Below, piece by piece: positions 42,964 to 62,719 of a DNA stretch of 64,000 nt. Both the position numbers and the translations under genes were made by a program. Under the pieces are notes generated by a model. It did not search any database and was not told the origin of the DNA. It saw nothing but the letters and a program-made list of their open reading frames with translations. Position 1 is the first letter of the stretch. Every line of letters starts with the position of its first letter. Source of the stretch: Gammaproteobacteria bacterium (GTDB lineage Bacteria > Pseudomonadota > Gammaproteobacteria > Pseudomonadales > Halieaceae). The stretch covers positions 7,878 to 71,877 of the forward strand of contig JAUIIQ010000001.1 in NCBI GenBank assembly GCA_030431585.1, in the 5' to 3' direction.

Positions 42964-43070
42964 TGCATAACCCAAATGAAGGATGCTGTTTTCGCGCCCA
43001 CGGTCTTTAATGCAGGCTTACCGCGCGATGCGGCCAAATGATCAACCATAACAACGCGACAGGTGAACGC

Positions 43071-45221: not shown

Positions 45222-45260
45222 CACAGCAGCAAGTTGAGCAGGGTGCCAGGAGGCTCCCTG

Positions 45261-45545: not shown

Positions 45546-45728
45546 TCGCGATAGCTTGTCCCTTTAATGCTATGCTTGCCCGGGTATAAAGTGACTGTCC
45601 CAGATCAACCTCTGTGCTCTGCTTTGTTTCAAGAAGGGAGCGAGTGTAAGTTGAAGGGCGTGGCCGGGTGTGGCCAGATCGCAGCGTAAGATGCGCGAAA
45701 ATCATAATTAGACAGACAGCAAAACAGT

Positions 45729-47390
45729 ATGAGCCAGGAACTACCGGACCTCCCCGCGATAGACGATCTCCAGAAACTGCTCCGCTTCGAGCCGGATGAG
45801 GGGCGCATCTGGCTGGAGGAAGAGCGCATGGTGCTGCTGCGCAGCAGCGAAATGCAGGCCCTGCGCAAGGAGATGATAGAGTCCCTGGGTATCGACCGGG
45901 CCAAGGGCCTGCTGATTCGCATGGGCTATATTGCCGGACAGCGGGACGCCGAGACCGCGCGACGTCTGCGTCCTGACGCACCTTTGTTCGAGGTATTCTC
46001 TGTTGGGCCGCAATCGCACATGATGACCGGGCAGGTCAAGGTTGTGCCAGTGACGCTTGATGTGGATGAGGAACGACAAACCTTTCACGGCGTGTTTGAG
46101 TGGCAGAACTCGTTCGAGGCAGAGATATTCCTGGCAGAGTATGGGGTGAGCTTCGAACCCGTCTGTTGGTCGCAGATTGGTTATGCCAGCGGCTTTACCA
46201 CCCGCTTCACGGGTAGGCAGATACTGTTTCGGGAACTGGGATGCATGGGCTGCGGCGAGAAGGCTTGTCGCATCGAAGGGCGCCCTGCAGAAGAGTGGGA
46301 CGACAGCGAGGACCTGTTGCGTTACTACCGTCCGGATCGTATCGCCGACCAATTATTTTCGCTGCAGTCCCAGGTGACGGCCCTGCGCGAGAATCTTACC
46401 GCTGCGCAGAGTTTTGGTGACCTGGTGGGTTGCTCCCCGTGCTTTCTTGAGGTGCGTGAACTGCTTTCGCGGGCAGCCGAGAGTAAGGTAACCGTACTGC
46501 TTCTGGGAGAAACCGGTGTCGGTAAGGACATGTTCGCCAAGGCTTTGCATGAGGGTAGCCCGCGAGCCGACAAGCCCTTTATCGCTGTAAACTGCGCGGC
46601 CATTCCGGGGGACCTTATCGAGGCGGAACTGTTCGGTGTTGAGAAGGGCGCCTACACCGGCGCTGACCAGTCGCGACCCGGGCGTTTCGAGCGAGCTCAC
46701 GGCGGTACTCTGTTCCTTGATGAGGTGGGTGAGCTGTCTCCCCAGGCGCAGGCCGCGTTACTGCGCGTGTTGCAGGAGAGCGAGCTGGAACGGGTAGGAG
46801 ATACACGTACCCGCAAGGTGGATGTGCGTCTGGTGGCGGCGACCAATGAAAATCTGGAGGAGGCGGTAGAGGCGGGACGTTTTCGCTCGGACCTGCTGTA
46901 TCGATTGAACGTGTACTCGGTGACGGTGCCGCCACTGCGCAAACGCATCGACGATATACCGGAACTGGTCAGCCATTTTCTCGACAAGTATTCGACATTG
47001 CACGGCAAGCGGGTCACAGGGCTCACCAACCGGGCCATGGCCTCGCTGCGTGCCTACCACTGGCCGGGAAATATCCGTGAGCTGGCGAATATGATCGAGC
47101 GGGGGGTGATCCTTGCAGAGCACGGCGGGGAGATCGGCAGTGCGCTGCTGTTTCCTCACCTGCAACAGGCAGGGGATGATGCCGATGATCATACCCGGGG
47201 AGCCGGCCGCTCACTGGGTGTCCTCGCGGATAGTCTGCTTGAGGAAGGCTGCAGCCTGGGTGAGCTTGAGCAGCAAATGATTGCTCGTGCCATGGAGCGC
47301 ACCGGCGGGAATGTTACCCGGGCGGCGAAACTGCTGGGCCTGTCGCGACCGACGCTGGATTACCGTCTGAAAAAAGCGGGTACAAGCTGA
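45729..47390 (+). CDS. Sigma-54-dependent phenol-responsive activator (DmpR/XylR/MopR family)
   Basis: XylR_N GRIWLEEERM, V4R Cys motif, GETGVGKD, GAYTGA, RAHGGTLFLDE, WPGNIREL, HTH. Confidence 0.95.
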   Translation: MSQELPDLPAIDDLQKLLRFEPDEGRIWLEEERMVLLRSSEMQALRKEMIESLGIDRAKGLLIRMGYIAGQRDAETARRLRPDAPLFEVFSVGPQSHMMTGQVKVVPVTLDVDEERQTFHGVFEWQNSFEAEIFLAEYGVSFEPVCWSQIGYASGFTTRFTGRQILFRELGCMGCGEKACRIEGRPAEEWDDSEDLLRYYRPDRIADQLFSLQSQVTALRENLTAAQSFGDLVGCSPCFLEVRELLSRAAESKVTVLLLGETGVGKDMFAKALHEGSPRADKPFIAVNCAAIPGDLIEAELFGVEKGAYTGADQSRPGRFERAHGGTLFLDEVGELSPQAQAALLRVLQESELERVGDTRTRKVDVRLVAATNENLEEAVEAGRFRSDLLYRLNVYSVTVPPLRKRIDDIPELVSHFLDKYSTLHGKRVTGLTNRAMASLRAYHWPGNIRELANMIERGVILAEHGGEIGSALLFPHLQQAGDDADDHTRGAGRSLGVLADSLLEEGCSLGELEQQMIARAMERTGGNVTRAAKLLGLSRPTLDYRLKKAGTS

Positions 47391-47406
47391 GTAATCCAGC
47401 CTGGAT

Positions 47407-47455
47407 TTCATGAAATGATGAAATTAGCCTGTGGCCGGGTTCATCATATGATGAC
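47407..47455 (+). promoter_or_regulatory. Two DmpR/XylR-type upstream activating sequences
   Basis: TTCATGAAATGATGAA (47407-47422) and TTCATCATATGATGAC (47440-47455), resembling the TTGATCAATTGATCAA consensus. Confidence 0.8.
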
Positions 47456-47530
47456 TTTTTACCCCTTGAACGATTCCTCGCCTTCGCAGTAACGTATATA
47501 ACTACCTAAAATATATATATTTTTCCTTTC

Positions 47531-47546
47531 TGGCACGCGCATTGCT
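47531..47546 (+). promoter_or_regulatory. Sigma-54 (-24/-12) promoter of the phenol hydroxylase operon
   Basis: TGGCAC-GCGCA-TTGCT, preceded by an AT-rich spacer that could bind IHF. Confidence 0.92.
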
Positions 47547-47591
47547 CTATTGCTTCCATCAAATAATGCATAAAGCAATCCGGAGCCTCCC

Positions 47592-47861
47592 ATGGCACCA
47601 GTATCAAACATCCGCAGCAATGCGGACGCAGCCAAATTCTCTGAACTGAAGCGCTATGTGCGCGTCCGTCAGGTCATCGACGACAAGTTTGTCGAATTCG
47701 ACTTTGCCATCGGCGATCCCTCCCTGTACGTGGAACTGGTCCTGCCCAAGGCCGCTTTTGACACGTTTTGCCACCACAACAAGGTGGAAATCATGTCTGA
47801 GGAGCAGGCCGCAGCGGTGGATGCAGACATGGAAAAGTGGCGCTACGGCGACGAGAAGTAA
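47592..47861 (+). CDS. dmpK: Phenol hydroxylase assembly subunit P0
   Basis: RYVRV, FVEFDFAIGDPSLYVELVLP, KWRYG. Confidence 0.92.
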   Translation: MAPVSNIRSNADAAKFSELKRYVRVRQVIDDKFVEFDFAIGDPSLYVELVLPKAAFDTFCHHNKVEIMSEEQAAAVDADMEKWRYGDEK

Positions 47862-47896
47862 CACCCGGAACATCAACCCCAGCAACAGGTAATCCG

Positions 47897-48877
47897 ATGA
47901 GCATAGAGATAAAGACAGCAACACTGGAACCGATCAGGCATACCTACGAACACACCAAGCGTCGTTTCGGCGACAAGCCAGCGTCGCGTTATCAGGAGGC
48001 CAGCTACGACATAGCGCCCGAGCAGAACTTTCATTACCGGCCCACGTGGCAGCCAGACAAAGAGTTATTCGACCAGAGCCGCACCGCTGTGGTGATGGAT
48101 GACTGGAATGTGCACAAGGACCCTCGCCAGTATTACTACGGCACCTATGTCCAGGCGCGGGCGAAGCTTCAGGAAGTAACCGAGAGCAACTACGCCTTCT
48201 TCGACAAGCGCGGATTCGCTGATCGCATGCCTGAGGAGGTGAGACAAAAAATCATACGCTGCATGGTACCGCTGCGACACGCTGAACTGGGCGCCAACAT
48301 GAACAACATGTTTTGCTTCTCTTACGGCACGGCCACGGTGGTGAACCAGGGTTTTCTGTACCACAGTATGGACCGCCTTGGTATCGCTCAGTACCTGTCG
48401 CGAGTGGGGCTGCTGCTCGATGGGAACAGTACTGAGAGCCTGGCTGCCGCCAAGGAATTCTGGATGAGTGACCCCGTCTGGCAGGGCATGCGTCGTTATA
48501 TCGAGAACGTGCTCTGCCTGGAAGACTGGTTCGAGGTGTTCATTGCCCAGAACGTGGTACTGGATACGTTGGTATATGACCTGATCTATCGACAGTTTGA
48601 CGAGAAAATTACTGAGGAAGGTGGTTCCGATCTAGCAATGCTAATCGAATTTATGCAGGAGTGGCACAAGGACAGCTCCCGTTGGGTGGATGCGACCCTC
48701 AAGACCACAGTGGGTGAGTCCGAACATAACCGCGAAACAATCCGTCGCTGGGTTGCCGACTGGCAGGAGAAGGCGGTAGCTGATTTGGCCCCTCTCGCTG
48801 AGATTGCGGTGGGCGACGATGCCATGAATGCATGCGTGGAAGTATTGAACAAGCGACTGGCCAAGGCAGGCCTCTAA
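47897..48877 (+). CDS. dmpL: Phenol hydroxylase beta subunit P1
   Basis: RRFGDKPASRYQEA, FHYRPTW, DPRQYYY, GANMNN. Confidence 0.95.
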   Translation: MSIEIKTATLEPIRHTYEHTKRRFGDKPASRYQEASYDIAPEQNFHYRPTWQPDKELFDQSRTAVVMDDWNVHKDPRQYYYGTYVQARAKLQEVTESNYAFFDKRGFADRMPEEVRQKIIRCMVPLRHAELGANMNNMFCFSYGTATVVNQGFLYHSMDRLGIAQYLSRVGLLLDGNSTESLAAAKEFWMSDPVWQGMRRYIENVLCLEDWFEVFIAQNVVLDTLVYDLIYRQFDEKITEEGGSDLAMLIEFMQEWHKDSSRWVDATLKTTVGESEHNRETIRRWVADWQEKAVADLAPLAEIAVGDDAMNACVEVLNKRLAKAGL

Positions 48878-48892
48878 AGGAGCAAAAAAACG

Positions 48893-49162
48893 ATGTCGAA
48901 AGCTTATATCGCATTGCAGGACAACGAGGAATCTCACTATATCGTGGAGGCGATCGAAGAGGATAACCCCACCGCCACGGTTATCTACCAACCCGCCATG
49001 ATTCGCATAGAAAACGAGGGACGCCTGGTGATCAAGCGGGAGACCGTGGAAGAAAAAATGGGCAGAGACTGGGAGATCCAGGCTCTGCATGTGAACCTGA
49101 TTACCCTGGGAGGCAACGTCGACGAAGACGATGACCAGTTTTCCCTGAGCTGGAAGCAATAA
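48893..49162 (+). CDS. dmpM: Phenol hydroxylase regulatory protein P2
   Basis: IALQDNEE..IVEAI..DNP, NLITLGGNVDED. Confidence 0.95.
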   Translation: MSKAYIALQDNEESHYIVEAIEEDNPTATVIYQPAMIRIENEGRLVIKRETVEEKMGRDWEIQALHVNLITLGGNVDEDDDQFSLSWKQ

Positions 49163-49174
49163 GGAGAAGGCAAG

Positions 49175-50707
49175 ATGACAGCTAAAAAACTGAATATGAA
49201 AGAGAAGTACAGTCTCCTCACGCGAGACCTGGACTGGGAATACAGCTACCGCGACTACAAGGAAATATTCCCCCAGGAGGAATTTGAGGGCATTAAGATT
49301 ACCGACTGGAGCAAGTGGGAAGACCCCTTCCGCCTGACCATGGATGCTTACTGGAAGTATCAGGCAGAGAAAGAGAAGAAGCTCTACGCCATCCTTGATG
49401 CGTTCGCCCAGAATAACGGACAGCAGAACGTGACGGACGCCCGTTACATCAATGCCATCAAGCTGTTCCTCACTGGCATTTCACCAGGAGAGCACCAGGC
49501 CGCGATGGGCTTCGGCCATGTGGGACGTCAACTGGGTGGGGTTGGCGCGCGAGTAGCCTGCCAGATGCAGGCCATTGATGAACTGCGCCATGTGCAGACG
49601 CAGATTCACGCGATGAGTCACTACAACAAGTTCTTCGATGGCTTCCAGGACTTTTCTCATATGCACGACCGGGTCTGGTACCTGTCTGTGCCCAAGTCTT
49701 TCTTCGATGACGCTCGCACCGCCGGGCCATTTGAATACATGGTGGCGATCGGCTTCTCGTTCGAGTATGTGCTGACCAACCTGCTGTTTGTGCCGTTCAT
49801 GTCCGGCGCCGCCTACAACGGTGATATGGCCACGGTGACCTTTGGCTTCTCCGCACAGTCGGATGAGGCGCGCCACATGACACTGGGTCTGGAGATCATC
49901 AAGTTCCTGTTGGAACAGCACCCGGATAACGTGCCTATCGTGCAGCGCTGGATCAACAAGTGGTTCTGGCGCGGCACCCGCATGCTGGCGCTGGTGGCGA
50001 TGATGATGGACTACATGCTGCCAAATAAGGTGATGTCCTGGCAGGAGGCCTGGGAAGTCTACTTTGAGGAAGCGGGCAGCTCCCTGTTCAAGGATCTGGC
50101 GCGTTATGGGATTGAAATGCCGGCCTATGCCAAAACGGCTATTGCCGAGAAGGAGCATGTTTCTCATCAGGCATGGAGCATTTTTTACAACTACGGTCAC
50201 GCCGCTGCCTTCCATACCTGGATGCCTACAGAGAAGGAAATGGACTGGCTGTCGGAGAAATACCCCAACACATTTGACAAGTACTACCGCCCGCGCTTTG
50301 AAAAGTGGCGCGAGATGGAGGCGGCCGGAGAGCGTTTCTACAACCCGACCCTGCCCATGCTCTGCCAGACCTGCCAGATTCCGATGGGCTTCACCGACAT
50401 GGAAGACCCTACGGCAACCTTCTACCGCCAGTCTGAATACGACGGTGAACGCTATAACTTCTGCTCTGACGGTTGCAAGGACATCTTTGACTATGAGCCT
50501 GAGAAGTACGTGCAAGCCTGGCTGCCGGTGCACCAGATATACCAGGGCAACTGTGGCGGAGCGGAAATGGAAGATGTGCTGGGCGACTACTACAAGATAA
50601 ACCTCGGCGTCGACAATATGGACTTCCACGGTTCTCCTGACGAGGAACGCTGGAATGCCTGGCACAACCTGCCGTCCGCTGAAGACAAACTGAAGCAGGC
50701 AAGCTGA
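49175..50707 (+). CDS. dmpN: Phenol hydroxylase alpha (di-iron) subunit P3
   Basis: WEDPFRLTMDAYWKYQ, two DExRH motifs (IDELRH, SDEARH), YHS-like FCSDGC. Confidence 0.97.
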   Translation: MTAKKLNMKEKYSLLTRDLDWEYSYRDYKEIFPQEEFEGIKITDWSKWEDPFRLTMDAYWKYQAEKEKKLYAILDAFAQNNGQQNVTDARYINAIKLFLTGISPGEHQAAMGFGHVGRQLGGVGARVACQMQAIDELRHVQTQIHAMSHYNKFFDGFQDFSHMHDRVWYLSVPKSFFDDARTAGPFEYMVAIGFSFEYVLTNLLFVPFMSGAAYNGDMATVTFGFSAQSDEARHMTLGLEIIKFLLEQHPDNVPIVQRWINKWFWRGTRMLALVAMMMDYMLPNKVMSWQEAWEVYFEEAGSSLFKDLARYGIEMPAYAKTAIAEKEHVSHQAWSIFYNYGHAAAFHTWMPTEKEMDWLSEKYPNTFDKYYRPRFEKWREMEAAGERFYNPTLPMLCQTCQIPMGFTDMEDPTATFYRQSEYDGERYNFCSDGCKDIFDYEPEKYVQAWLPVHQIYQGNCGGAEMEDVLGDYYKINLGVDNMDFHGSPDEERWNAWHNLPSAEDKLKQAS

Positions 50708-50722
50708 GAGGAGCGTTGAATC

Positions 50723-51085
50723 ATGACCGTAGCAGCAATTACCCCCGAGTACATCGGTGAACGCCGGGATCGAGTTGAGAACTTCCACGGCAACCAGATC
50801 GTGTACGTGGGCTGGGACAGGCACCTGATGTTCTGCTCGCCCGTGGCCTTCGCCCTGCCGCCCGAGACCTTATTCTCCACCCTGGTCGATGATGTCATCA
50901 GCGGTGCGTTTAGCCAGCACCCCGACTTCGCCGAAATAGACTGGGGAAAGGTCCAGTGGCACCTCAACGACCAGCCCTTTGCCCCTGAGCGGGACAAGAG
51001 CTTGATTGAACAAGGGGTGGACCACAAGTCCATCATCCGTATGGCCACACCCGGTTTGAACGGTATTGAAGGCTCGGGCAGTTGA
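50723..51085 (+). CDS. dmpO: Phenol hydroxylase gamma subunit P4
   Basis: RDRVENFHG, GWDRHLMF, HPDF, PGLNGI. Confidence 0.94.
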   Translation: MTVAAITPEYIGERRDRVENFHGNQIVYVGWDRHLMFCSPVAFALPPETLFSTLVDDVISGAFSQHPDFAEIDWGKVQWHLNDQPFAPERDKSLIEQGVDHKSIIRMATPGLNGIEGSGS

Positions 51086-51098
51086 ACAGGAACCCATC

Positions 51099-52157
51099 AT
51101 GTACGAAGTAACTGTAGAGCCCACCGGCGATGTGGTGGAGGTCGAAGAAGGACAGACGATACTCGATGCGAGCCTGCGTCAGGGAGTATGGCTGCCCTTT
51201 GCCTGTGGCCACGGCACCTGCGGCACCTGCAAGGTACAGGTGCTGGAAGGTGATGTGGAGATTGGTGATGCCTCACCCTTTGCATTAATGGACATGGAGC
51301 GGGAGGAGGGCAAGGTACTCGCCTGTTGCGCCATCCCCGAGAGTGATCTCATTATCGAGGCAGACATCGATGTGGACCCGGATTTTATGGGCTATCCCAT
51401 CGAGGACTTTCAGGCCACTGTGGTCGCTATTGATGACCTGTCGCCAACGATAAAGGGTGTGCGCTTTGAGCTGGATCACCCGATAGAGTTTCAGGCTGGC
51501 CAGTACATCAACCTGAATATGCCGGGCGTGGAGGGCGCGAGGGCCTTTTCAATTGCCAATAAACCCTCTGACGCATCGGTGCTGGAGTTGCACGTGCGGC
51601 GGGTGCCGGAAGGTGCGGGTACGGGCTATATACACGACCAGCTCCAGATAGGCGAAACGCTGCCACTCTCGGGGCCCTACGGTCAGTTTTTCACTCGCAA
51701 GTCCGCCCCCGAAGACTTGATCTTTATCGCCGGCGGTTCCGGATTGTCGAGCCCCCAGTCGATGATTCTGGATCTGCTGGAGCACGGCGACACACGCAAG
51801 ATCACTTTGCTGCAGGGCGCGCGTAATCTGTCTGAACTCTACAACCGCGAGCTGTTTGAGCAGCTGGCTGAAGAGCATGAGAACTTTAGTTATGTGCCCG
51901 CACTGGACAACCCCCTGCCCGAAGACAACTGGGACGGCTTTGTGGGCTATGTGCATGAAGCGGCGATAGACCATTTCGATGGCCTGTTCGCGAACCACAA
52001 AGCATACCTGTGTGGTCCCCCGCCCATGATCGACGCAGCGATTACGGCATTGATGCAGGGACGCCTGTTTGAACGGGATATTTATATGGAGCGTTTCCTC
52101 ACTGCCGCCGATGGTGCCGAAGGCGCTACGAAAAGTGCACTGTTCAAGAAGATCTAG
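51099..52157 (+). CDS. dmpP: Phenol hydroxylase reductase P5 (2Fe-2S/FAD/NADH)
   Basis: CGHGTCGTC, FQAGQY, RAFSIA, AGGSG, YLCGPP, SALFKKI. Confidence 0.96.
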   Translation: MYEVTVEPTGDVVEVEEGQTILDASLRQGVWLPFACGHGTCGTCKVQVLEGDVEIGDASPFALMDMEREEGKVLACCAIPESDLIIEADIDVDPDFMGYPIEDFQATVVAIDDLSPTIKGVRFELDHPIEFQAGQYINLNMPGVEGARAFSIANKPSDASVLELHVRRVPEGAGTGYIHDQLQIGETLPLSGPYGQFFTRKSAPEDLIFIAGGSGLSSPQSMILDLLEHGDTRKITLLQGARNLSELYNRELFEQLAEEHENFSYVPALDNPLPEDNWDGFVGYVHEAAIDHFDGLFANHKAYLCGPPPMIDAAITALMQGRLFERDIYMERFLTAADGAEGATKSALFKKI

Positions 52158-52163
52158 TTGTAG

Positions 52164-52472
52164 ATGAGTCATACCATCAAGTTGACCGACACCGGGGAGA
52201 CGTTTTGCTGCCGCGACGACCAGCACCTGCTGCAGGGCATGCAAACGTTCCAGATCGGCAAGCCGATGCTGGACGCAATCACCGTGGGTTGCCGGGGCGG
52301 TGGTTGTGGTGTCTGCCGTATCAGGGTTGTTGAGGGGGAGTACGAACTAAAAAAGATGAGTCGCAAACATGTCAGTGCAGAGGAGCAGGCCGAGGGTATT
52401 GTCCTGGCCTGCCGCGTCTTTCCCCGCTGCGACCTGTTGGTCGAAGTGCTGCCTGTGGCGAAACCGGCATGA
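52164..52472 (+). CDS. dmpQ: XylT/DmpQ-type 2Fe-2S ferredoxin
   Basis: GCRGGGCGVC, KMSRKHV, LACRVFP. Confidence 0.88.
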   Translation: MSHTIKLTDTGETFCCRDDQHLLQGMQTFQIGKPMLDAITVGCRGGGCGVCRIRVVEGEYELKKMSRKHVSAEEQAEGIVLACRVFPRCDLLVEVLPVAKPA

Positions 52473-52873
52473 TCAATATCAGCGCCACTGACGCATGCGA
52501 GATAATCGAGCGTGCAACCGTCAGGGCGACGGAGCTGAATGTTGCCGCCTGCATTGCGATTGTGGATGCGGGAGCCCACCTGGTCGCCTTCCAGCGCATG
52601 GACGATGCAAGTATTGGTCCTGTCGATGTGTCTCAGCGCAAGGCCCGTACTGCGGCGCTGTTCCAGATGCCCAGCGGTGATTTCGGCAAGGTTATTGTCG
52701 ACCACGGCCTTACCGGTATGGAGCTGACTAATGGCGGCCTTGCTGCTTTCCATGGCGGTCTGCCAATACTGGACAGTGGCAGACTGGTCGGTGCCATAGG
52801 CGTCTCTGGAGGCAGTGCGGAGCAGGATCTCGATATAGCACGTCATGCACTGGACATGAACCAGCAAGCCTGA
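52469..52873 (+). CDS. GlcG/HbpS (heme-binding, PduO C-terminal-like) protein
   Basis: IAIVDAG..L..FQRMD, KARTA, GGLPI, GAIGVSGG; ATGA overlap with dmpQ. Confidence 0.88.
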   Translation: MINISATDACEIIERATVRATELNVAACIAIVDAGAHLVAFQRMDDASIGPVDVSQRKARTAALFQMPSGDFGKVIVDHGLTGMELTNGGLAAFHGGLPILDSGRLVGAIGVSGGSAEQDLDIARHALDMNQQA

Positions 52874-52976
52874 AGAGGGAGCGTTAGAGGGCTGCCTGCT
52901 CGGCTTGAAGCTGCATCCGCGTGGGGCGTTGCGCCACGCGAGAGTATAAAAACAAACAGCTGAAGGAGCCATCGCC

Positions 52977-55250
52977 ATGACACGTCTTTTCTCTCACAAG
53001 CATCGTCCGGTGCATATGAGCGCTTTTCCCCTCGAGATTCTGCCGCGAGGGGAAAGCGTGCCTGAGTTCAAGCGCCCGCAGCCCAGCCCTGTATTCACGG
53101 TAGAGGATTCGGCTAACCCCCATTCGCTCGCCAACGGCATGCGCGAGTACATCAACGTGATGGACCGTATGCGTTTGGGGCCGATTGCTCCGCAGCAAGC
53201 ACCTGTTCCGCAGGACCCCGAGGAGAGAGCGAATCACCTCAAGGCTGCGTGCTATTACCTGGATGCCAGCATGGCAGGCACGTGCAGAATTCCTGCCAAC
53301 GCGGTGCTGGCAGAGCCTGTTGTCAACGCTGCCCTGGGCGAGTCCATGGAGCGGGAATACGGCGCCGGCTCCGCTGATAATCCTATGGCTGAGATCAGTG
53401 TGCGCGAGGGCAGGGCGGCCTGGGAGCGCGCCCAGGCAGAGATAAACGAGCCGCTGCAGGACGGATATGCTCTGGTGATACTGAATGAGCATACCCGCGA
53501 TGTTGACCCGGCTGAACCCGGCGCAACGTGGCTGCTTGATACTCAGGCGCAGCGCGCCGCCCTGCGTGCCGCTGAGGTCGGGGCCGTAATGGCGAACTAC
53601 CTGCGTATGCTTGGGTTTGACGCACGTTTGCACACGGTAACTGCCACGGAGCTTGATATCGAGCAGATGCTGCTGGCAGCGGGCCTTGGGGTGAGTGTTG
53701 AAACAGAGGGTGTGGCCAGGGTGGAGGTGCCGTATCTGGGAGCGGGCTATGGCGCTGTAATTGTGTCCACATCGATGGAGTTAGCCAGCGACTTGCCTCT
53801 GGCGCCGGGAGCCATGTCGTCCTGTCGTAACGTTAAATGGTGGTCAGGCTATGGCGGAACGCGGCCAGGTTTTCAGGGGCCTCTGTACAAGGGGCGTCCG
53901 TTTCATCTTGGTTTGTACCCGATGGAAACGGTTAAACGGGTTGCCGAACCCACTACCCTGATTGACGCACCCAATGTGCCTCGAATTCCCAAACGCCATG
54001 ACATGTTTATTCGCGCAAGCATCGGCGACCTTGGCCCCAAGGCTCAAAAAGAACTGACGGATTTTCGCATGATCACCAAATCCCCGTTTGGGCATGCAAT
54101 GATTCCGGTGTTGGGTGGCATGGTGCCGCTGCAGTATGGTCAGGAAGCGGAACAGCAGGCCCAGGGGTATGCAGATGCCCGCAAGAATTCAGAGATGATC
54201 AAGGCTGCCATGTACTACCTGGGTGCCGACATGGTCGGTATCTGCGAGATACCCGAGTACGCCTGGTACTCCCATGATCTGGACGGCTCCGAAATCAAGC
54301 CCTATCACAAGTACGCCATTTGTATCCTCGTAGACCAGGGTTATGAAACCATGGAAGGGGCCAGCGGTGACGATTGGATCAGCGGCGCGCAGAGCATGCG
54401 CGCCTACATGCGTGCTCAGTTGATTGGTGGCACGGTTGGCTCTCATCTTCGCGGCCTCGGTTTCTCTGCGCGCGGGCACAGCGTTATGGACCAGGATGTG
54501 CTGCACATACCGTTAAACCTGCTGGCGGGCCTGGGAGAATTACCTCGAATCGGCGAGATGGTGTTGAATCCCTTCGTTGGGCCGCGCTTCAAGTCGGGTA
54601 TTCTCACCACCGACATGCCTCTGGAGCCGGACCTTCCCATCGATTTCGGTCTGCAGGACTTTTGCAACAAGTGCCTGAAGTGCGCCAGGGAGTGCCCCGT
54701 TACCGCAATCCCCTTCGGTGACAAGATCATGTTCAATGGCTACGAAATGTGGAAGCCGGATGTTGAGAAATGCGGGCGCTACCGGATTACCAACGCCGCC
54801 GGATCAATGTGTGGCCGCTGCATGAAAACCTGCCCCTATAACCTGGAAGGTGTACTGAAGGAAAAACCCTTTCTGTGGAGTGCGATGAACCTGCCTTTCA
54901 GTCGCAAGTGGATAGCCGACCTGGATGACAAGGTGGGGAATGGCAGAATTAATCCGGTGAAGAAGTGGTGGTGGGATCTCGATACCGACGATGATGGCAA
55001 TATCGTGCCAGCAAAGCGCATCAATGCCCGGGAGTTGGAGTTTCGCTCAATGCAACCCAGGGAGCAGAAGCTGGCCTGCTACCCACACGAGGTTGTGCCC
55101 AGCCCTGTTGTCGTGGAACCGGCTGCGCCAGACCGCAAGCAGGGTGTGCAATTCTACAAGGCTGCACCCTCACCCGAAGACTATCGCGCGAGGATGAGGC
55201 GTGGAGAGACCTCACCGGGGAAAAAGCCGAACTGGGAAACAGGGGAGTAG
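52977..55250 (+). CDS. rdhA: Cytoplasmic (catabolic) cobalamin-dependent reductive dehalogenase, NpRdhA-like
   Basis: CxxCxxCxxxCP and Cx12CxxCxxxCP Fe-S motifs, GADMVGIC, SMRAY, AGLGE, NPFVGPRFK, KWW; duplicated N-terminal domain; no Tat RR signal. Confidence 0.9.
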   Translation: MTRLFSHKHRPVHMSAFPLEILPRGESVPEFKRPQPSPVFTVEDSANPHSLANGMREYINVMDRMRLGPIAPQQAPVPQDPEERANHLKAACYYLDASMAGTCRIPANAVLAEPVVNAALGESMEREYGAGSADNPMAEISVREGRAAWERAQAEINEPLQDGYALVILNEHTRDVDPAEPGATWLLDTQAQRAALRAAEVGAVMANYLRMLGFDARLHTVTATELDIEQMLLAAGLGVSVETEGVARVEVPYLGAGYGAVIVSTSMELASDLPLAPGAMSSCRNVKWWSGYGGTRPGFQGPLYKGRPFHLGLYPMETVKRVAEPTTLIDAPNVPRIPKRHDMFIRASIGDLGPKAQKELTDFRMITKSPFGHAMIPVLGGMVPLQYGQEAEQQAQGYADARKNSEMIKAAMYYLGADMVGICEIPEYAWYSHDLDGSEIKPYHKYAICILVDQGYETMEGASGDDWISGAQSMRAYMRAQLIGGTVGSHLRGLGFSARGHSVMDQDVLHIPLNLLAGLGELPRIGEMVLNPFVGPRFKSGILTTDMPLEPDLPIDFGLQDFCNKCLKCARECPVTAIPFGDKIMFNGYEMWKPDVEKCGRYRITNAAGSMCGRCMKTCPYNLEGVLKEKPFLWSAMNLPFSRKWIADLDDKVGNGRINPVKKWWWDLDTDDDGNIVPAKRINARELEFRSMQPREQKLACYPHEVVPSPVVVEPAAPDRKQGVQFYKAAPSPEDYRARMRRGETSPGKKPNWETGE

Positions 55251-55292
55251 GTGGGCTGTGTTGCTGTTACACGGGGTTTACGCCCGGCAGCG

Positions 55293-55715
55293 TCAAACAG
55301 GCTTGTAGGCAACCGCTTTTATTTCAATCAGTAAATGCGGGTGCGGCAGTTGGTGCACCGCTACGGTGGTCCGGGTGGGACCATCGTAGTCGAAGTATTC
55401 ACTGTAGACCGCATTGTAGCCACCGAAGTCGTTCATGTTTACCAGGAACGCGCTGACTTCAACCAGGTCGTCAAGGCCCGCTCCGGCCTCTGCCAGAATA
55501 TCGCGAATATTGTCGATGACTGCGCGGGTTTGCACGCGGATGTCCAGATCGACCGTGCCCATCTCGTCCACATCGGCGCCAGCCAGTGAATTGTCCGGCC
55601 GACGAGAACTGGTGCCGGAGACAAAAAGAAAATCTCCGGCGCGTTTGATGTGTGGAAAGGTACCGCGGGGTTGAGCCTTGCCTGGCACCACAGTTGCCGA
55701 TGTTTTGTCACTCAT
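55293..55715 (-). CDS. amnD: 2-aminomuconate deaminase (RidA/YjgF family)
   Basis: [43 protein letters not shown]; directly downstream of amnBA. Confidence 0.85.
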
Positions 55716-55779
55716 ATTGCCGATGTCTTCCTTCGAAGCCGGTAAGCCTGGTTAATCTGCTTCCTGCTGTATGGTGTCC

Positions 55780-58170
<2,391 letters not shown>

Positions 58171-58275
58171 TGGCGGTGCTCGCGTTCGAATCTGGCTAGG
58201 TACGTAATATGAAATTATCAGCAGTTATCAGGATAGCGGGCAAATTCCAAACTTACTAAGCAATTCTTAGATCCA

Positions 58276-58378
58276 GTCGATATTAAAAGATAATATCTAT
58301 AAAACTAAAAAATATCGATAAAATGTTGTTCAGAGATAAAATATAGACTATCGTTAAAAACATCAAATATCGATAAAA
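58276..58378. promoter_or_regulatory. Repeated AATATCGATAAAA operator-like motifs in AT-rich divergent promoter
   Basis: Exact copies at 58311-58323 and 58366-58378, 1-mismatch copy at 58292-58304, inverted partial copy at 58276-58284. Confidence 0.7.
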
Positions 58379-58432
58379 AGCAGTATCACACAGATCCGGG
58401 GTGCCGGATTGTCCTCGCAGGAGTAAGTAACC

Positions 58433-59359
58433 ATGAGAAAAGGAGTAATGCGCCCGGGTCATGTGCAATTGCGCGTGCTGGACCTGGATGAGGCAATTGT
58501 TCACTACCGCGATCGGCTGGGGCTGATTGAGGTTAATCGCGATAGTCAGAATCGCGCCTACTTCAAAGGCTGGACCGAAATAGATTCGTTTTCCGTGGTG
58601 CTGCGCGAAGCAGATGAGCCGGGAATGGATTTCATGGGCTTCAAGGTCACCACACCGGATGTACTTGAAGAGCGCAAGCAGGAGTTGATCGAATACGGTT
58701 GCCAGGTGGAGGTTATCCCCGCGGGTGAACTGGATGGCTGCGGTGAACGGGTTCGCTTCGACTCGCCCACTGGGCATTACTTTGAGCTTTACGCCGAGAA
58801 GGAGCAGCCGGGTAAGTGGGGTATCTCTCCCAAAAACCCTGACGCATGGCCCGAGGACCTGAAGGGTATGAAGGCAACCCGATTTGATCACTGCCTGCTC
58901 TACGGCGACGACCTGGACGGTACTGTCGAGCTGTTGCAGAAAGTGCTTGGTTTCCAGCTGTCGGAGCAGGTGGTTGACCACCAGGACGGCACGCGGGTGG
59001 CGGCGTTCCTGACGGTATCAACCAAGGCGCATGACGTGGCGTTTGTGCGTCACCCTGAGAAAGGGAAGTTCCACCACGCCTCTTTCTGGCTGGACACCTG
59101 GGAAGATGTTCTGCGCGCTGCCGACCTTATATCCATGCACGATATGTCACTGGATATCGGTCCCACCCGTCACGGCCTGACTCATGGCCAGACCATTTAT
59201 TTCTTCGACCCGTCTGGCAACCGTAACGAGGTGTTCTGCGGTGGCGATTACACCTATCCGGATCACCCCGTTGTGACCTGGGACGCGGAGCAGATCGGCA
59301 AGGCAATTTTCTACCACGACAGGGTGCTCAACGAGGCATTCCTGGGTGTGGTGACCTGA
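58433..59359 (+). CDS. xylE: Catechol 2,3-dioxygenase (XylE/DmpB subfamily)
   Basis: [51 protein letters not shown]. Confidence 0.96.
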
Positions 59360-59397
59360 TTATGTCCCTGGCCCAACAATCGACAGAAGACGCAGTG

Positions 59398-60858
59398 ATG
59401 AGCGACGTAAAAAACTTTATTGATGGCGAATATCGTGGGTCTGCTGCGGGCAGGGTCTTCGACAACATCAATCCCTGTACCGGCGCGGTTATCAGCTCTG
59501 TGCACGAAGCATCCCGAGAGGATGTCGATGCCGCAGTAAAAGCCGCGCGTGAGGCACTCTCCGGCCCCTGGGGCAGGATGAGTGATGAAGAGCGGGGCGA
59601 GATTCTGCACGCTGTGGCGGATGGGATTGACAGGCGCTTCGATGAATTCCTGGCGGCCGAATGCGCCGATACGGGCAAGCCATACAATATTGCCAGTCAC
59701 ATAGATATTCCACGTGGTGCAGCCAACTTTCGCGTATTCGCAGATGCGGTAAAGAACGTTGCCACCGAAGCGTTCCAGATGGCGACGCCAGATGGTAAAG
59801 GCGCCTTCAATGTGGCGGTTCGCAAGCCAAAGGGGGTTATAGCGGTCATCAGCCCCTGGAACCTTCCACTGTTGCTGATGACCTGGAAGGTCGGTCCAGC
59901 CCTCGCCTGCGGCAATACTGTTGTCGTCAAACCTTCAGAGGAAACGCCCACTACCACCTCTCTTCTGGGTGAGGTCATGAACGAGGCTGGCGTGCCGCCC
60001 GGCGTGTTTAACGTGGTGAACGGATTTGGCCCTGACTCTGCAGGTGCGTTCCTGACTGAGCATCCGGAGGTTGATGCGATTACATTCACCGGTGAAACGC
60101 GTACCGGTGAGATTATTACGCAGGCGGCGGCGATTGGTCTGCGTGACGTGTCCATGGAGTGTGGCGGCAAGAATCCTGCGCTGGTCTTTGCCGACTGTGA
60201 TATGGATAAGGCAATCGAGGGGACCTTGCGTTCTGTCTTTGCCAACTGCGGCCAGGTTTGCCTGGGCACCGAACGGGTGTATGTAGAACGTCCCATCTTT
60301 GATGAGTTTGTTTCCCGGCTGGCCAGTGAGGCGGGCAAATTCACACTGGGTCTGCCGGAGGACGCCAATACTGACATGGGGCCGCTGGTTTCTCACGAAC
60401 ATCAGCAAAAAGTTCTGTCCTACTACGAGCTGGCGGTTGCCGAAGGCGCCACCGTGGTGCTCGGCGGCGGCATACCTGACATGCCTGATGAACTGGCTGG
60501 TGGCGCCTGGATACAGCCTACCATCTGGACCGGACTGCCCGACGATGCCCGGGTGGTCAATGAGGAGATATTTGGCCCCTGTTGTCACATCCGTCCATTC
60601 GATACGGAAGAGGAAGTGATCAAGCTGGCCAACGATACGAAATACGGCCTTGCCGCCGCTATATGGACTGAGAATACCTCTCGTGCACTGCGTGTTTCCA
60701 CTCAGATTGATTGTGGCGTCGCCTGGGTAAACAGCTGGTTCCTGCGCGACCTGCGTACCGCGTTTGGTGGTGCCAAGGCATCGGGAATGGGCCGGGAAGG
60801 CGGCGAGCACTCTCTTGAGTTCTACTCTGAAATGCAGAATGTCTGCATAAAAATCTGA
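59398..60858 (+). CDS. dmpC: 2-hydroxymuconic (or 2-aminomuconic) semialdehyde dehydrogenase
   Basis: HIDIPRGAANF, SPWNLPLLLMTWK, FTGETRTG, NCGQVCL, EEIFGPC, VNSWFLRDLRT. Confidence 0.92.
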   Translation: MSDVKNFIDGEYRGSAAGRVFDNINPCTGAVISSVHEASREDVDAAVKAAREALSGPWGRMSDEERGEILHAVADGIDRRFDEFLAAECADTGKPYNIASHIDIPRGAANFRVFADAVKNVATEAFQMATPDGKGAFNVAVRKPKGVIAVISPWNLPLLLMTWKVGPALACGNTVVVKPSEETPTTTSLLGEVMNEAGVPPGVFNVVNGFGPDSAGAFLTEHPEVDAITFTGETRTGEIITQAAAIGLRDVSMECGGKNPALVFADCDMDKAIEGTLRSVFANCGQVCLGTERVYVERPIFDEFVSRLASEAGKFTLGLPEDANTDMGPLVSHEHQQKVLSYYELAVAEGATVVLGGGIPDMPDELAGGAWIQPTIWTGLPDDARVVNEEIFGPCCHIRPFDTEEEVIKLANDTKYGLAAAIWTENTSRALRVSTQIDCGVAWVNSWFLRDLRTAFGGAKASGMGREGGEHSLEFYSEMQNVCIKI

Positions 60859-60880
60859 ATATTGAGTCTGGAAAAACACC

Positions 60881-61672
60881 ATGAGCACACTGAGTAACGA
60901 AGTTGTAGGGCAGTTGGCGGAACACCTGGAAAACGCTGAACTGCAGGCCCACGACGTCACCAAGATAACGGATGACTACCCCGAGATGGATTTTGAGGAT
61001 GCCTACAACATCCAGTGGGAGATCCGTCGTCGCAAGGAGGCCAGAGGCAACAAAATTGTGGGTATGAAAATGGGGCTGACCTCCTGGGCGAAGATGGCGC
61101 AGATGGGAGTCGAAGAACCCTGCTATGGTTTTCTGGCTGATTATTTCAGTTGCCCCGATGGCGCTGCTATCGATACGTCAAAATTAATACACCCCAAGGT
61201 CGAGGCGGAAATTGCTTTCGTTACCAACGCCCCTCTCAAAGGGCCGGGAGTGCACGTGGCAGATGTCATAGCGGCCACCGATTTTGTTCTCCCCGCTGTC
61301 GAAATAATCGACTCGCGCTATCGTGATTTCAAATTTGATATCAAGAGTGTTGTAGCGGACAACAGCTCTTCCTCGCGTTTCGTTACCGGCGGTCGCAGCT
61401 TGCCGGTGGGGCATATGGACCTGCGCACAACCGGCGTCATCCTGGAGAAGAACGGCGAAATCGTCGATATGTCCGTGGGTGCGGCAGTACTGGGTGACCC
61501 CGCAGCCAGCGTCGCTATGTTGGCCAACATGCTGGGTGAACGGGGTGAGGAAATTCCGGCTGGAACGTTTGTTATGACGGGCGGCGTAACCGCCGCAGTG
61601 GCGGTAGCGGCCGGTGACAACATCACCGTGCGGTATCACGAGATGGGATCGATCAGCATGAGGTTTGTCTAG
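60881..61672 (+). CDS. dmpH: 4-oxalocrotonate decarboxylase (DmpH/AmnE)
   Basis: KMGLTSWAKMAQMGV, IHPKVEAEIAF, DSRYRDFKFD..SVVADNSS. Confidence 0.9.
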   Translation: MSTLSNEVVGQLAEHLENAELQAHDVTKITDDYPEMDFEDAYNIQWEIRRRKEARGNKIVGMKMGLTSWAKMAQMGVEEPCYGFLADYFSCPDGAAIDTSKLIHPKVEAEIAFVTNAPLKGPGVHVADVIAATDFVLPAVEIIDSRYRDFKFDIKSVVADNSSSSRFVTGGRSLPVGHMDLRTTGVILEKNGEIVDMSVGAAVLGDPAASVAMLANMLGERGEEIPAGTFVMTGGVTAAVAVAAGDNITVRYHEMGSISMRFV

Positions 61673-61715
61673 CGCGTTTGCGCTGCAGGCAGACCCGGAT
61701 TTCAAGATGATAAGA

Positions 61716-62696
61716 ATGAACAGCGATATGACCCAGAAGCTCCTCCCGGCACAACGCGCGGCATCGCTTGTGTTGCTTGCGCTAGTGTTGCTTGCCGGCT
61801 GTGAAGCACCGCTCGACCTGGCGTCGGTGGAGGCAGAGAAGGCGCGGGAGTTCAGGCGCTATGACGTACTGCAGGCAGCGGCTCATAGCGGCCAGCGAGC
61901 CGTGGTGGTCAGTTCCATCGGCGCGATCATCAGCTCCGAGGACAGCGGAGCCAGCTGGCAGCGGACTGAGTTGAGCGGCCGTCCCCAATTGATTGATGTT
62001 ACAGCGTGTCCCTCGGGTGACTTCTTTGCGCTGGATGCAGAACGCCGCATATGGCGTCAGACGGCTGCTGGTGATTGGCAGTCTTCAGCCATCGATACAG
62101 CGGAGCACACACTCTCCATCCATTGCGCCGCCAATGGCCGGCTCTGGGTGTCTGCGAGCTTCGGTACGCTGTTCTGGTCTGCAGGTGACATGCAGCAATG
62201 GAATGAATTCAGCCTTTATGAGGACCTGCAATTCACTGCGGTGCGCTTCGTTGACGAAAACGTCGGCTTCGCGCTCGGTGAGTTCGGTACAGTCATTGTC
62301 TCTACCGATGGCGGTGACAACTGGGAGCGCCGCGACGGGATTCCGAATGAATTCTATCCGATGGCGGCGGACTTTTTGAACGAGAACACCGGCTGGGTTG
62401 GCGGTCTCGATGGTGTGATCTGGGAGACCCGGGATGGCGGCAACAGCTGGCAGCGCCAGCAGTCTGTTACCTCCGCGCCGATCTACAACATTCACGCTGA
62501 TAAACACGGCGTATTTGCCGTGGGCGGCAGCGCCAAACTGGTGGAGCTGCGTGGCGGCCAGTGGCAGAACTTTGTTGGCGCTCCCGAGGTGCTGGCATTC
62601 ATGCGCGGATTGGATGCGCTAGATAACGGAGCGCTACTGGTAGCAGGTGGCGGTGGCACGTTGGCGGTAATACCGCTTTCTGGTCGTGATGCCTGA
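61716..62696 (+). CDS. YCF48/BNR-repeat beta-propeller lipoprotein (start uncertain, 61716 or 61728)
   Basis: Lipobox LAGC; SEDSGASW, STDGGDNW, TRDGGNSW Asp-boxes; GEFG. Confidence 0.85.
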   Translation: MNSDMTQKLLPAQRAASLVLLALVLLAGCEAPLDLASVEAEKAREFRRYDVLQAAAHSGQRAVVVSSIGAIISSEDSGASWQRTELSGRPQLIDVTACPSGDFFALDAERRIWRQTAAGDWQSSAIDTAEHTLSIHCAANGRLWVSASFGTLFWSAGDMQQWNEFSLYEDLQFTAVRFVDENVGFALGEFGTVIVSTDGGDNWERRDGIPNEFYPMAADFLNENTGWVGGLDGVIWETRDGGNSWQRQQSVTSAPIYNIHADKHGVFAVGGSAKLVELRGGQWQNFVGAPEVLAFMRGLDALDNGALLVAGGGGTLAVIPLSGRDA

Positions 62697-62719
62697 AACG
62701 GCTAACTAAGGGTTTCCAA

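Follow-up and report, generated by a model that had tools for sequence, protein, structure and literature searches.

Gene organization of the locus

We analyzed a 64,000-nucleotide (nt) stretch of DNA (the window; G000:C77:7878-71877) that lies inside a 117,856-bp contig of a 3.68-Mb genome assembly (335 contigs, 87% complete, 58% GC), the host of which is probably an uncultured marine bacterium of the family Halieaceae. The window carries a phenol-hydroxylase operon of the dmp type whose last gene, rdhA, encodes a predicted cobalamin (B12)-dependent reductive dehalogenase. This operon converges on a unit in which a gntR regulator gene precedes putative 2-aminophenol cleavage genes (amnB, amnA, and amnD), and a meta-cleavage unit that begins with a catechol 2,3-dioxygenase gene (C23O) follows. 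All of the genes from dmpR to dmpH that had been listed in a preliminary description of this DNA proved to be intact open reading frames (ORFs), positioned as follows.

45729-47390, plus strand: dmpR, sigma-54 activator of the XylR/DmpR/MobR type (XylR_N, V4R, AAA+, and HTH_8 domains)
47531-47546, plus strand: sigma-54 promoter TGGCAC-N5-TTGCT, a perfect -24/-12 element (TGGCACgcgcaTTGCT), 45 nt 5' of dmpK
47592-52157, plus strand: dmpKLMNOP, six-component phenol hydroxylase (PF06099, PF02332 [twice], PF02406, PF04663, and Fer2/FAD/NAD domains), comprising dmpK (47592-47861), dmpL (47837-48877), dmpM (48893-49162), dmpN (49175-50707), dmpO (50723-51085), and dmpP (51066-52157)
52164-52472, plus strand: dmpQ, XylT-type plant-type [2Fe-2S] ferredoxin (Pfam, NCBIfam)
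52469-52873, plus strand: glcG, GlcG/HbpS/NahX-like gene (PF03928)
52977-55250, plus strand: rdhA, predicted stand-alone cytoplasmic reductive dehalogenase of the NpRdhA type with B12 and two [4Fe-4S] clusters, 757 amino acids (aa), last gene of the dmp operon
55293-55715, minus strand: amnD, 2-aminomuconate deaminase, RidA family (PDB 6IZH, E 1e-57)
55780-56592, minus strand: amnA, non-catalytic alpha subunit of 2-aminophenol 1,6-dioxygenase (3VSG_A, E 2.9e-100; 8IHG_B, E 4e-91)
56589-57509, minus strand: amnB, catalytic beta subunit of the same enzyme (8IHG_A, E 2.5e-166 over 300 residues; 3VSG_B, E 1.3e-165)
57511-58170, minus strand: gntR, FCD-family regulator, AphS/BphS-like (GntR and FCD domains), first gene of gntR-amnB-amnA-amnD
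58310-58320 and 58365-58375, gntR-C23O intergenic region: two exact AAATATCGATA palindromic operator-like sites, 55 bp apart
58433-59359, plus strand: C23O (TIGR03211, 439 bits, above cut-off)
59362-60858, plus strand: dmpC, 2-hydroxymuconic semialdehyde dehydrogenase (TIGR03216, 867 bits, above cut-off)
60881-61672, plus strand: dmpH, 4-oxalocrotonate decarboxylase (TIGR03218, 469 bits, above cut-off)

The region from 45000 to 64000 was covered in one piece, with 21 differences, by a 30.9-kb contig of a public DNA run, which may itself be the source of the window DNA. Because this single contig spans the region, the gene arrangement is not an assembly artefact.

The phenol-hydroxylase operon is of the dmp type, with the K, L, M, N, O, and P genes in order, a DmpR-type activator, and a sigma-54 promoter. 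DmpR matched the NCBIfam MobR model (E 4e-192) with 639 bits, under the cut-off of 999, and DmpN was 96% identical to that of a genome of the same genus (G219). The sigma-54 element was the sole intergenic match of its kind in the cluster, and neither C23O nor rdhA was found to have a sigma-54 promoter of its own. AT-rich inverted repeats (tttcatgaaatgatgaaat ... ttcatcatatgatga) at 47395-47450, approximately 100 nt 5' of the promoter, may be DmpR upstream activating sites. Downstream of the hydroxylase genes, DmpQ has the four cysteines (Cys43, Cys48, Cys51, and Cys83) that were invariant in the ferredoxin alignment, and dmpQ overlaps glcG by 4 nt. The glcG-rdhA gap is 103 nt, with a good ribosome-binding site (RBS), and a consensus scan found no intrinsic terminator between the two genes; in L009, the locus of a relative described below, the glcG and rdhA tblastn matches are 18 nt apart and the gene calls abut. 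A hairpin at 52918-52940 was considered as an attenuator and rejected, its fold being no better than that of 14 of 200 shuffles (z -1.8). The PDB matches of the GlcG-like protein were EfgA (6BWS), the PduO C-terminal domain (5CX7), and NahX (9JTH). Through its PduO C-terminal fold family, glcG was also considered as a specific B12-handling partner of RdhA, and this was rejected because glcG has the same place in G219, which lacks rdhA, and because NahX-like genes are ordinary members of meta operons.

In the opposite orientation, amnA and amnB encode two LigB-type subunits so close to characterized enzymes that the pair is predicted to be an AmnBA-type dioxygenase. The start of amnB was placed at GTG 57509, behind the RBS GGAGGA and one base past the gntR stop, and a longer amnB ORF reaching 57650 was rejected as the gene. 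The amnA gene overlaps amnB by 4 nt, and rdhA and amnD are convergent with a 42-nt gap. AmnD matched generic RidA proteins at E values of only approximately 1e-20, compared to its match with 6IZH given above. A complete amn pathway is not present: the module holds only amnB, amnA, and amnD, no amnC or amnE of its own was found in the window or in L009, and the nearest dehydrogenase and decarboxylase genes are dmpC and dmpH, whose products score as catechol-pathway equivalogs. The genes examined from 33188 to 64000 included no apparent nitroreductase or mutase gene.

Identity and predicted active site of RdhA

RdhA residues 3-742 aligned with NpRdhA (PDB 4RAS, 6ZXU) at E 2e-176, the protein scored 198.8 bits against TIGR02486 (cut-off 160.35), and PceA structures matched it over the Fe-S core only (E 6e-22). 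Both Fe-S motifs are present (CNKCLKCAREC at 563 and CGRCMKTC at 612). NpRdhA residues Ser422, Met423, Tyr426, Lys488, and Arg552 are all found in RdhA and were invariant in 85 of 85 aligned homologues, the RdhA equivalents of Ser422, Tyr426, Lys488, and Arg552 being S473, Y477, K539, and R603. In NpRdhA, Ser422 and Arg552 bind the phenolic hydroxyl, and Tyr426 and Lys488 form the proton-donor dyad (PMC7565698). The RdhA N-terminus, MTRLFSHKHRPVH, aligns with NpRdhA residue 2 and corresponds to the structural start conserved in this family rather than to a Tat signal. No Tat signal was found in RdhA, no rdhB was found next to rdhA (the neighbours are glcG and amnD), and no C-terminal PDOR-type reductase domain was found in the protein, for which Pfam gives the Fe-S motifs only and which ends at 757 aa. 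Fused forms of approximately 1040 to 1100 aa do occur among the homologues (P0069, P0078, P0096).

A maximum-likelihood tree of 85 RdhAs was built, in which 37 rows make up a gammaproteobacterial clade and 40 are outer rows from Acidimicrobiia, Alphaproteobacteria, and Burkholderiales with at most 50% RdhA identity. Compared to NpRdhA, the gammaproteobacterial clade has a pocket signature of F290M, K307L, P311R, and A419G, each present in 36 to 37 of the 37 members. In one NpRdhA complex, Lys307 forms a salt bridge with the benzoate carboxylate (PMC7565698). Its clade-wide loss hints at non-carboxylated substrates; the new Arg311 could substitute for it, and we draw no conclusion. Both NpRdhA and JtRdhA debrominate ortho-halogenated phenols (PMC7565698, PMC10463259), the best substrate of JtRdhA being 3,5-dibromo-4-hydroxybenzoate (PMC10463259), which is also the ligand in the NpRdhA crystals (PMC7565698).

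These features bear on whether the enzyme is a dehalogenase. Non-dehalogenating epoxyqueuosine reductases are also members of this family (PMC7585037), and since the pocket residues are unlike those of NpRdhA, the window protein might perform some other cobalamin-dependent reduction on an intermediate of the phenolic pathway. We regard this as highly improbable: the Tyr-Lys dyad and the Ser and Arg that hold the phenolic hydroxyl are invariant, the TIGR02486 score is above the cut-off, and the NpRdhA alignment is full length.

Comparison of the junction with a congener that lacks rdhA

The junction between the operons was compared to that of G219, which is of the same GTDB genus as the window genome. 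There the order is dmpR-dmpKLMNOP-dmpQ-C23O(1)-glcG, with glcG and gntR convergent and approximately 100 bp apart, and gntR is divergent from C23O(2)-dmpC-dmpH-BNR-RND-DUF1302-DUF1329-DsbA-GST (GST, glutathione S-transferase). No RdhA match at E 1e-50 or better was found in G219, and no amn genes were found at its junction. Since G219 has glcG, gntR, and the second C23O without rdhA, these three genes are by this comparison native to the cluster of the window's family. Relative to G219, the window has rdhA added behind glcG and amnB-amnA-amnD added behind gntR, and C23O(1) is missing. The preliminary description had placed an insertion of about 6 kb between dmpQ and the dioxygenase gene dmpB; with the G219 order as reference, this becomes an addition of 4.6 kb (rdhA plus amnBAD, 52874-57510) at the convergent glcG-gntR junction, together with the missing first C23O copy. 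The comparison fits both directions, gain and loss. No GC anomaly was found at the insert borders (0.55-0.60 across the region), and no transposase-like ORF was found among the ORFs examined, a survey that included no formal repeat search.

Relatives have a C23O gene behind dmpQ and a second one behind gntR: G219 has both, and L004 keeps a C23O fragment (L004:2-376), which lies 5' of glcG in a locus that also has rdhA. In both G219 and G106, C23O directly follows dmpQ.

Taken together, the gene order makes it probable that the locus is a mosaic aerobic phenol/meta-cleavage cluster in which rdhA and amnBAD modules were gained at one convergent operon junction, and its gene content makes a catabolic route for brominated phenols plausible.

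Occurrence of the arrangement in relatives

The preliminary description knew of no described system with this arrangement. It is not unique to this genome: the order glcG-rdhA-...-gntR-C23O was found in L004, L005, L009, and L046, and the position of rdhA relative to the phenol hydroxylase genes is conserved in these four other assemblies at 77-84% RdhA identity. A literature search found neither an identical characterized cluster nor a paper describing a stand-alone rdhA that ends a sigma-54 dmp operon or an rdhA beside amnBA, its coverage of subscription journals being incomplete. The loci with the conserved position are as follows.

L004: RdhA 78% identity; rdhA between glcG and gntR, no amn genes
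L005/L006: RdhA 77% identity; rdhA preceded by tetR and followed by an AmnD-like gene on the plus strand and by luciferase-like fragments
L009: RdhA 78% identity; full arrangement including amnD-amnA-amnB
L046: RdhA 84% identity overall, best segment 95%; full arrangement plus one extra ORF, rdhA split in two ORFs

L046, a 760-kb contig of an uncultured gammaproteobacterium, is the closest relative. Its extra ORF, of 426 aa and located between rdhA and amnD in the stretch L046:10001-13598, has no Pfam match. In L005, a RidA/AmnD-like gene (L005:12496-12936) stands directly 3' of rdhA on the same strand, without amnBA, and in four Acidimicrobiia loci (L070, L072, L073, and L074) a RidA/AmnD-like gene lies approximately 115 bp 5' of rdhA. 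There may be a link between RidA and RdhA that is independent of aminophenol cleavage.

Regulation and RNA evidence

The gntR gene is divergent from C23O across a 262-bp AT-rich intergenic region, which holds two AAATATCGATA sites versus 0.25 expected by chance. The paired sites are kept with the same spacing in six loci (the window, L046, L009, L005, L004, and G219). Each site corresponds to the first 11 positions, counted from the left, of the 14-position AphS/BphS motif AAATmTCGAkATTT. This motif is the AphS/BphS operator, and BNR (COG4447), RND, DUF1329, and DUF1302 genes lie inside AphS/AphR regulons (PMC6449761). We considered whether gntR encodes an amn-specific regulator and rejected this, since gntR and its operator-like sites occur at this position in three loci without amnBA (G219, L004, and L005). 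Because the operator sites are conserved and the gene is present in relatives without amnBA, GntR is most readily interpreted as the regulator of the meta operon, AphS/BphS-like in type, which would now also drive amnBAD, a likeness suggested by its domains, its position, and the predicted operators. The inverted gntR-amnB-amnA-amnD order of the preliminary description holds, but gntR is not an amn gene by origin; it is native to the meta-cleavage operon, as in G219. The single regulated route that had been proposed for the cluster gives way to at least two units, DmpR and sigma-54 for dmpK to rdhA and a GntR divergon for amnBAD and C23O-dmpC-dmpH.

Near-identical DNA for 51000-59500 was detected in 20 runs from 13 studies, the sources of which include three coded organisms (A, B, and C) as well as metagenomes of the marine sediment, marine, algae, biofloc, aquatic, and 'soil' types, and an algae metagenome contained pieces of 45000-64000 at identities of at least 99%. 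One of the runs (X19) is a poly(A)-selected marine RNA library. It yielded one 5540-nt contig (47750-53289) that extends from the interior of dmpK across glcG and 313 nt into rdhA, further pieces inside rdhA and in gntR, and a 2867-nt contig (58387-61253) that begins 46 nt before the C23O start. The depth over dmpR was zero in X19, compared to a DNA run (X5) that was even across the region. The X19 contigs fit transcription from two promoter regions with read-through from glcG into rdhA, which is supportive but not conclusive. A leaf litter RNA run (X20, share 0.09) gave only short pieces and was not used. Given the near-identical DNA in 13 studies and the marine RNA library, the organism and its cluster seem to be widespread and expressed.

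Linkage of rdhA to phenol, meta-pathway, and aminophenol genes

Links between rdhA and aromatic-degradation genes were then counted across the RdhA tree. Within the gammaproteobacterial clade, 24 of the 37 rows had rdhA linked to phenol hydroxylase, meta-pathway, or amnBA genes, versus none of the 40 outer rows. The former is a lower bound, since several unlinked rows are short contigs, and the count is used descriptively because kin rows are not independent. The link takes about five different arrangements within the clade. In addition to the order of the window, rdhA is divergent from dmpK in L028, precedes dmpR-dmpKLMNOP-C23O in L040 and L047, and lies approximately 6 kb from dmp genes in L031. 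It follows BNR-RND-DUF1302-DUF1329-GST-GST in P0010 and L011, and it follows dmpG-dmpH-BNR-RND-DUF1302-DUF1329-DsbA in approximately 15 metagenome-assembled genomes (MAGs), with dmpF present too in L039. In L027 and L044, rdhA adjoins amnBA with no dmp genes within 10 kb; adjacency alone was used for these two loci, as ORF choice in their high-GC neighbours is unreliable and most frames have no Pfam match. P0012 and P0013 (71% RdhA identity) are in unrelated gene contexts.

A DsbA-like gene (PF01323) and one or two GST genes stand directly beside rdhA in L011, L015-L042, L045, and L095, with gaps to rdhA of 18-170 bp in the MAG group. In the window genome, the DsbA-like and GST genes are 12 kb 3' of rdhA, between DUF1329 and dmpE (L002:7439-9492).

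Several observations weigh against a dedicated route through this cluster. No rdhA was found in three other species of the same genus, and the RdhA clade was present in only 1 of 401 genomes sampled from the window's order, G000 itself; rdhA is for these reasons accessory and could be a passenger gene. The content of the junction varies, with tetR and a plus-strand RidA gene in L005, no amn genes in L004, and an extra ORF in L046, and such variation is as compatible with a permissive insertion site as with selection. The rdhA of L046 is split into overlapping ORFs (10001-11167 and 11164-12276), which may reflect a frameshift or pseudogene or a long-read error. Phenol hydroxylase genes are 0.8-2 Mb from rdhA in all three genomes checked from the group of approximately 15 MAGs. 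The X19 evidence comes from contigs assembled from one poly(A)-selected library, in which DNA carry-over is possible, and a contig across glcG and rdhA does not prove one transcript. The divergent clade pocket (F290M, K307L, P311R, and A419G) means that the substrate could be something other than simple halophenols. All functional statements made here rest on homology and gene neighbourhood.

The absence of rdhA from the three congeners and the differing junction content are what would be expected if the modules were accidental neighbours at a permissive junction, with RdhA acting on halogenated hydroxybenzoates or hydroxyphenylacetates, AmnBA acting on non-halogenated 2-aminophenol, and no coupling between them. 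The preference of the characterized RdhA relatives for carboxylated substrates and the unrelated contexts of P0012 and P0013 point the same way. Conversely, accident does not readily explain an association that occurs in about five distinct arrangements, within one RdhA clade only and in none of the 40 outer homologues, or the fact that rdhA also adjoins amnBA in two more contexts that are unrelated; Lys307, the carboxylate salt-bridge residue, is missing throughout the clade, and co-expression is indicated by the RNA contig and by the close spacing of the genes. We therefore consider accidental neighbourhood to be quite unlikely.

Cobalamin and electron supply

We investigated how the window genome might provide RdhA with its cofactor and electrons. 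The single cobalamin riboswitch detected in the genome is directly 5' of a gene for a BtuB-like TonB-dependent receptor (G000:C301:13543-15617), and neither CbiC nor CobS was found in the genome, which is 87% complete. The presence of the riboswitch and receptor without CbiC and CobS suggests that B12 is imported rather than made.

With respect to electrons, rdhA directly follows a pair of 2-oxoacid:ferredoxin oxidoreductase (OFOR) genes in L010 and L045 (gap of approximately 65 nt; the P0013 context), loci with 71% RdhA identity and no phenol genes within 10 kb. The OFOR genes and rdhA are separated by a gene for an Fe-S ferredoxin in L032 and L095, and NpRdhA likewise has OFOR and ferredoxin genes beside rdhA (PMC10463259). 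Because L010 and L045 have OFOR-rdhA without phenol genes, rdhA appears to be accompanied by either an electron-supply module or a phenol module. A dedicated OFOR and ferredoxin were not found in G000 (87% complete), which has only paralogues of 27-40% identity and a housekeeping-like FdxA (58%), all on other contigs. In vitro, NpRdhA takes electrons from spinach ferredoxin, which is of the plant-type 2Fe-2S kind (PMC7565698, PMC10463259). Since the OFORs of G000 are distant, NpRdhA uses a plant-type ferredoxin, and DmpQ is a ferredoxin of the same type in the same operon, we propose by analogy that DmpQ or DmpP is a candidate electron donor of RdhA, replacing OFOR and ferredoxin; DmpP is comparable to the reductase of BhbA-type enzymes, except that it would be supplied in trans and not fused. 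A prediction of the RdhA-DmpQ complex gave scores of 0.00 and 0.00, which count neither for nor against DmpQ. Catabolic B12 dehalogenases such as NpRdhA, BhbA, and JtRdhA have been characterized biochemically; for those of the stand-alone type, neither the electron donor nor the pathway served in the cell is settled (PMC10463259).

L095 belongs to Pseudomaricurvus alkylphenolicus (GCA_011683955.1), a cultured alkylphenol degrader whose RdhA is 62% identical to that of the window. Its locus contains MMPL-DUF1302-DUF1329-DsbA-GST, tetR, OFOR alpha and beta, ferredoxin, and rdhA, 45 kb from a dmp operon on the same contig. This species provides a ready experimental model.

Genes flanking the cluster

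The cluster is bordered by the genes listed below, and it extends past 61672 and past the end of the window as far as dmpE-dmpF-dmpG.

42097-42963, plus strand: short-chain dehydrogenase/reductase (SDR) (Pfam, NCBIfam)
43038-44261, plus strand: HsaA-like flavin-dependent monooxygenase, oxygenase subunit, two-component type (Pfam, NCBIfam)
44388-45221, plus strand: BphD/HsaD-like meta-cleavage-product hydrolase (Pfam, NCBIfam)
61665-62696, plus strand: BNR/Ycf48-like gene (domain searches)
62720 onwards, plus strand: RND/MMPL transporter gene, running off the window end (domain searches)
Past the window end, in order: DUF1302, DUF1329, DsbA-like (HCCA-isomerase family), two GSTs, dmpE, dmpF, dmpG

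The hydrolase is 96% conserved and has the same position in L046, and by its family it could fill the role of DmpD. The SDR, HsaA-like, and hydrolase genes, which lie just 5' of dmpR, may form a second hydroxylase and hydrolytic branch for substituted phenols.

Proposed pathway

The gene content suggests the following route. DmpR would sense phenolic inducers and the sigma-54 promoter would fire, so that the hydroxylase and RdhA are made together. RdhA, predicted to be oxygen tolerant, would strip halophenols of the bromine, iodine, or chlorine in ortho position to the phenolic hydroxyl, and it may also dehalogenate 3-halocatechols made from halophenols by the hydroxylase. Hydroxylation of the dehalogenated ring would give catechol, which C23O could cleave without being poisoned, and the product would pass to DmpC and DmpH and then to DmpE, DmpF, and DmpG, encoded further down the contig. 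In parallel, AmnBA would cleave 2-aminophenol and AmnD would deaminate the resulting 2-aminomuconate, allowing entry into the DmpC/DmpH branch; AmnBA and AmnD would supply exactly the two amino-specific steps, which may be why the module has no dehydrogenase or decarboxylase of its own. We infer the substrates, the order of the steps, the coupling of RdhA to AmnBA, the electron supply, and the import of B12 from the gene content described above, and the only evidence that points to a functional link between RdhA and AmnBA is the independent adjacency of rdhA and amnBA in L027 and L044.

RdhA could instead serve chiefly to guard the extradiol dioxygenases. 3-Halocatechols inactivate C23O. In this reading, the phenol hydroxylase would act first and convert halophenols into 3-halocatechols, halo-2-aminophenols might be formed in a comparable manner, and RdhA would dehalogenate 3-halocatechols and halo-2-aminophenols before they reach C23O and AmnBA, with GSTs clearing surviving halogens later. 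An NpRdhA-type enzyme needs only a halogen ortho to a phenolic hydroxyl, as in a 3-halocatechol or a 6-halo-2-aminophenol. In addition, rdhA is beside ring-cleavage or lower-pathway genes, not the hydroxylase, in approximately 15 MAGs and L011, and beside amnBA in L027 and L044, and genes for GST and DsbA-like (kappa-GST) proteins recur directly beside it. BphK-type GSTs dechlorinate metabolites of polychlorinated biphenyl degradation (PMC6396153); by speculative analogy, the GST and DsbA-like proteins encoded beside rdhA may strip residual halogens from ring-fission products. Set against a guarding role, the window rdhA appears to be transcribed with the hydroxylase genes and not with C23O or amnBA, and halocatechols are only putative RdhA substrates. 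On balance, we judge this role to be unlikely.

Returning to the mosaic phenol/meta-cleavage cluster, a broader form of this proposal would make the RdhA clade a standard accessory of extradiol pathways in marine Gammaproteobacteria, fed by DmpQ or DmpP and, with AmnBA, opening a route for bromophenols and bromo-2-aminophenols that both feeds and protects the dioxygenases. We put this forward only tentatively and do not expect it to hold in full.

Marine algae and invertebrates produce bromophenols in abundance as natural products, and the aerobic turnover of these compounds is poorly tied to genes. The cluster and its relatives provide a testable context for this turnover, namely, a sigma-54 operon, presumably induced by phenol, with rdhA as its last gene; a candidate donor within the operon; and an unexpected, recurring link to 2-aminophenol cleavage. 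If the proposed route is true, it would add an aerobic heterotroph route to the marine halogen cycle and offer oxygen-tolerant debrominases with a native redox partner. All of the parts are familiar; it is their association that is conserved and apparently expressed in the sea.

Comparison with known systems

The closest characterized enzyme is NpRdhA of Nitratireductor pacificus pht-3B (PDB 4RAS, 6ZXU, 6ZXX). Like it, the window RdhA is predicted to be stand-alone, cytoplasmic, and two-lobed, without Tat signal, RdhB, or fused reductase, and it keeps Ser422, Met423, Tyr426, Lys488, Arg552, and both Fe-S motifs. Unlike NpRdhA, it has the F290M, K307L, P311R, and A419G changes at the pocket and entrance, and its gene stands behind phenol-hydroxylase genes in an operon that includes a plant-type ferredoxin gene.

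The bhb bromoxynil cluster of Comamonas sp. 7D-2, which encodes BhbA, reportedly combines aerobic B12-dependent dehalogenation ortho to a phenolic hydroxyl with subsequent oxygenase steps. The logic of the window cluster is like that of bhb and JtRdhA, in that a B12 reductive dehalogenase would feed aerobic oxygenolytic degradation. A PDOR-type NAD(P)H reductase domain is fused to the C-terminus of both BhbA and JtRdhA (PMC10463259). The window RdhA differs from both in having no such domain, and their substrates are hydroxybenzoates. The bhb system has no multicomponent phenol hydroxylase, sigma-54 control, meta-cleavage genes, or amn genes, all of which are present in the window.

The dmp system of Pseudomonas sp. 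CF600 consists of dmpR and dmpKLMNOPQBCDEFGHI. The window shares with it the DmpR-type activator, the sigma-54 promoter, the six-subunit hydroxylase, and DmpQ, with meta-cleavage genes thereafter. In contrast to CF600, dmpQ in the window is followed by glcG and rdhA, C23O-dmpC-dmpH forms a separate unit under putative GntR control, the operon is without dmpD and dmpI, and dmpE-dmpF-dmpG is set apart by the RND/DUF1302/DUF1329/GST block.

The known amn and cnb clusters include amnBACFEDHG of Pseudomonas sp. AP-3 and that of Comamonas sp. CNB-1, which encodes CnbCaCb (PDB 3VSG). AmnB, AmnA, and AmnD of the window are orthologues of such proteins (3VSG, 8IHG, 6IZH) at E 2.5e-166, 3e-100, and 1e-57, respectively. 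Unlike these clusters, the window has only the three amino-specific genes, with the dehydrogenase, decarboxylase, hydratase, and aldolase apparently borrowed from the dmp genes, and its module stands behind an AphS-like gntR and is convergent with rdhA.

The aph and bph clusters of Betaproteobacteria that are controlled by AphS or BphS (PMC6449761) resemble the window in having a GntR-family regulator gene divergent from meta-cleavage genes, operator-like sites that match the left 11 nt of the motif, and BNR/RND/DUF1329/DUF1302 genes. They differ from it in that the window has a gammaproteobacterial host and a regulator operon that carries amnBAD, and no rdhA is reported in the aph/bph regulons (PMC6449761). 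As a kind, catabolic reductive dehalogenation that feeds aerobic ring cleavage is already known, as with BhbA; what is new here is the addition of rdhA and amnBAD.

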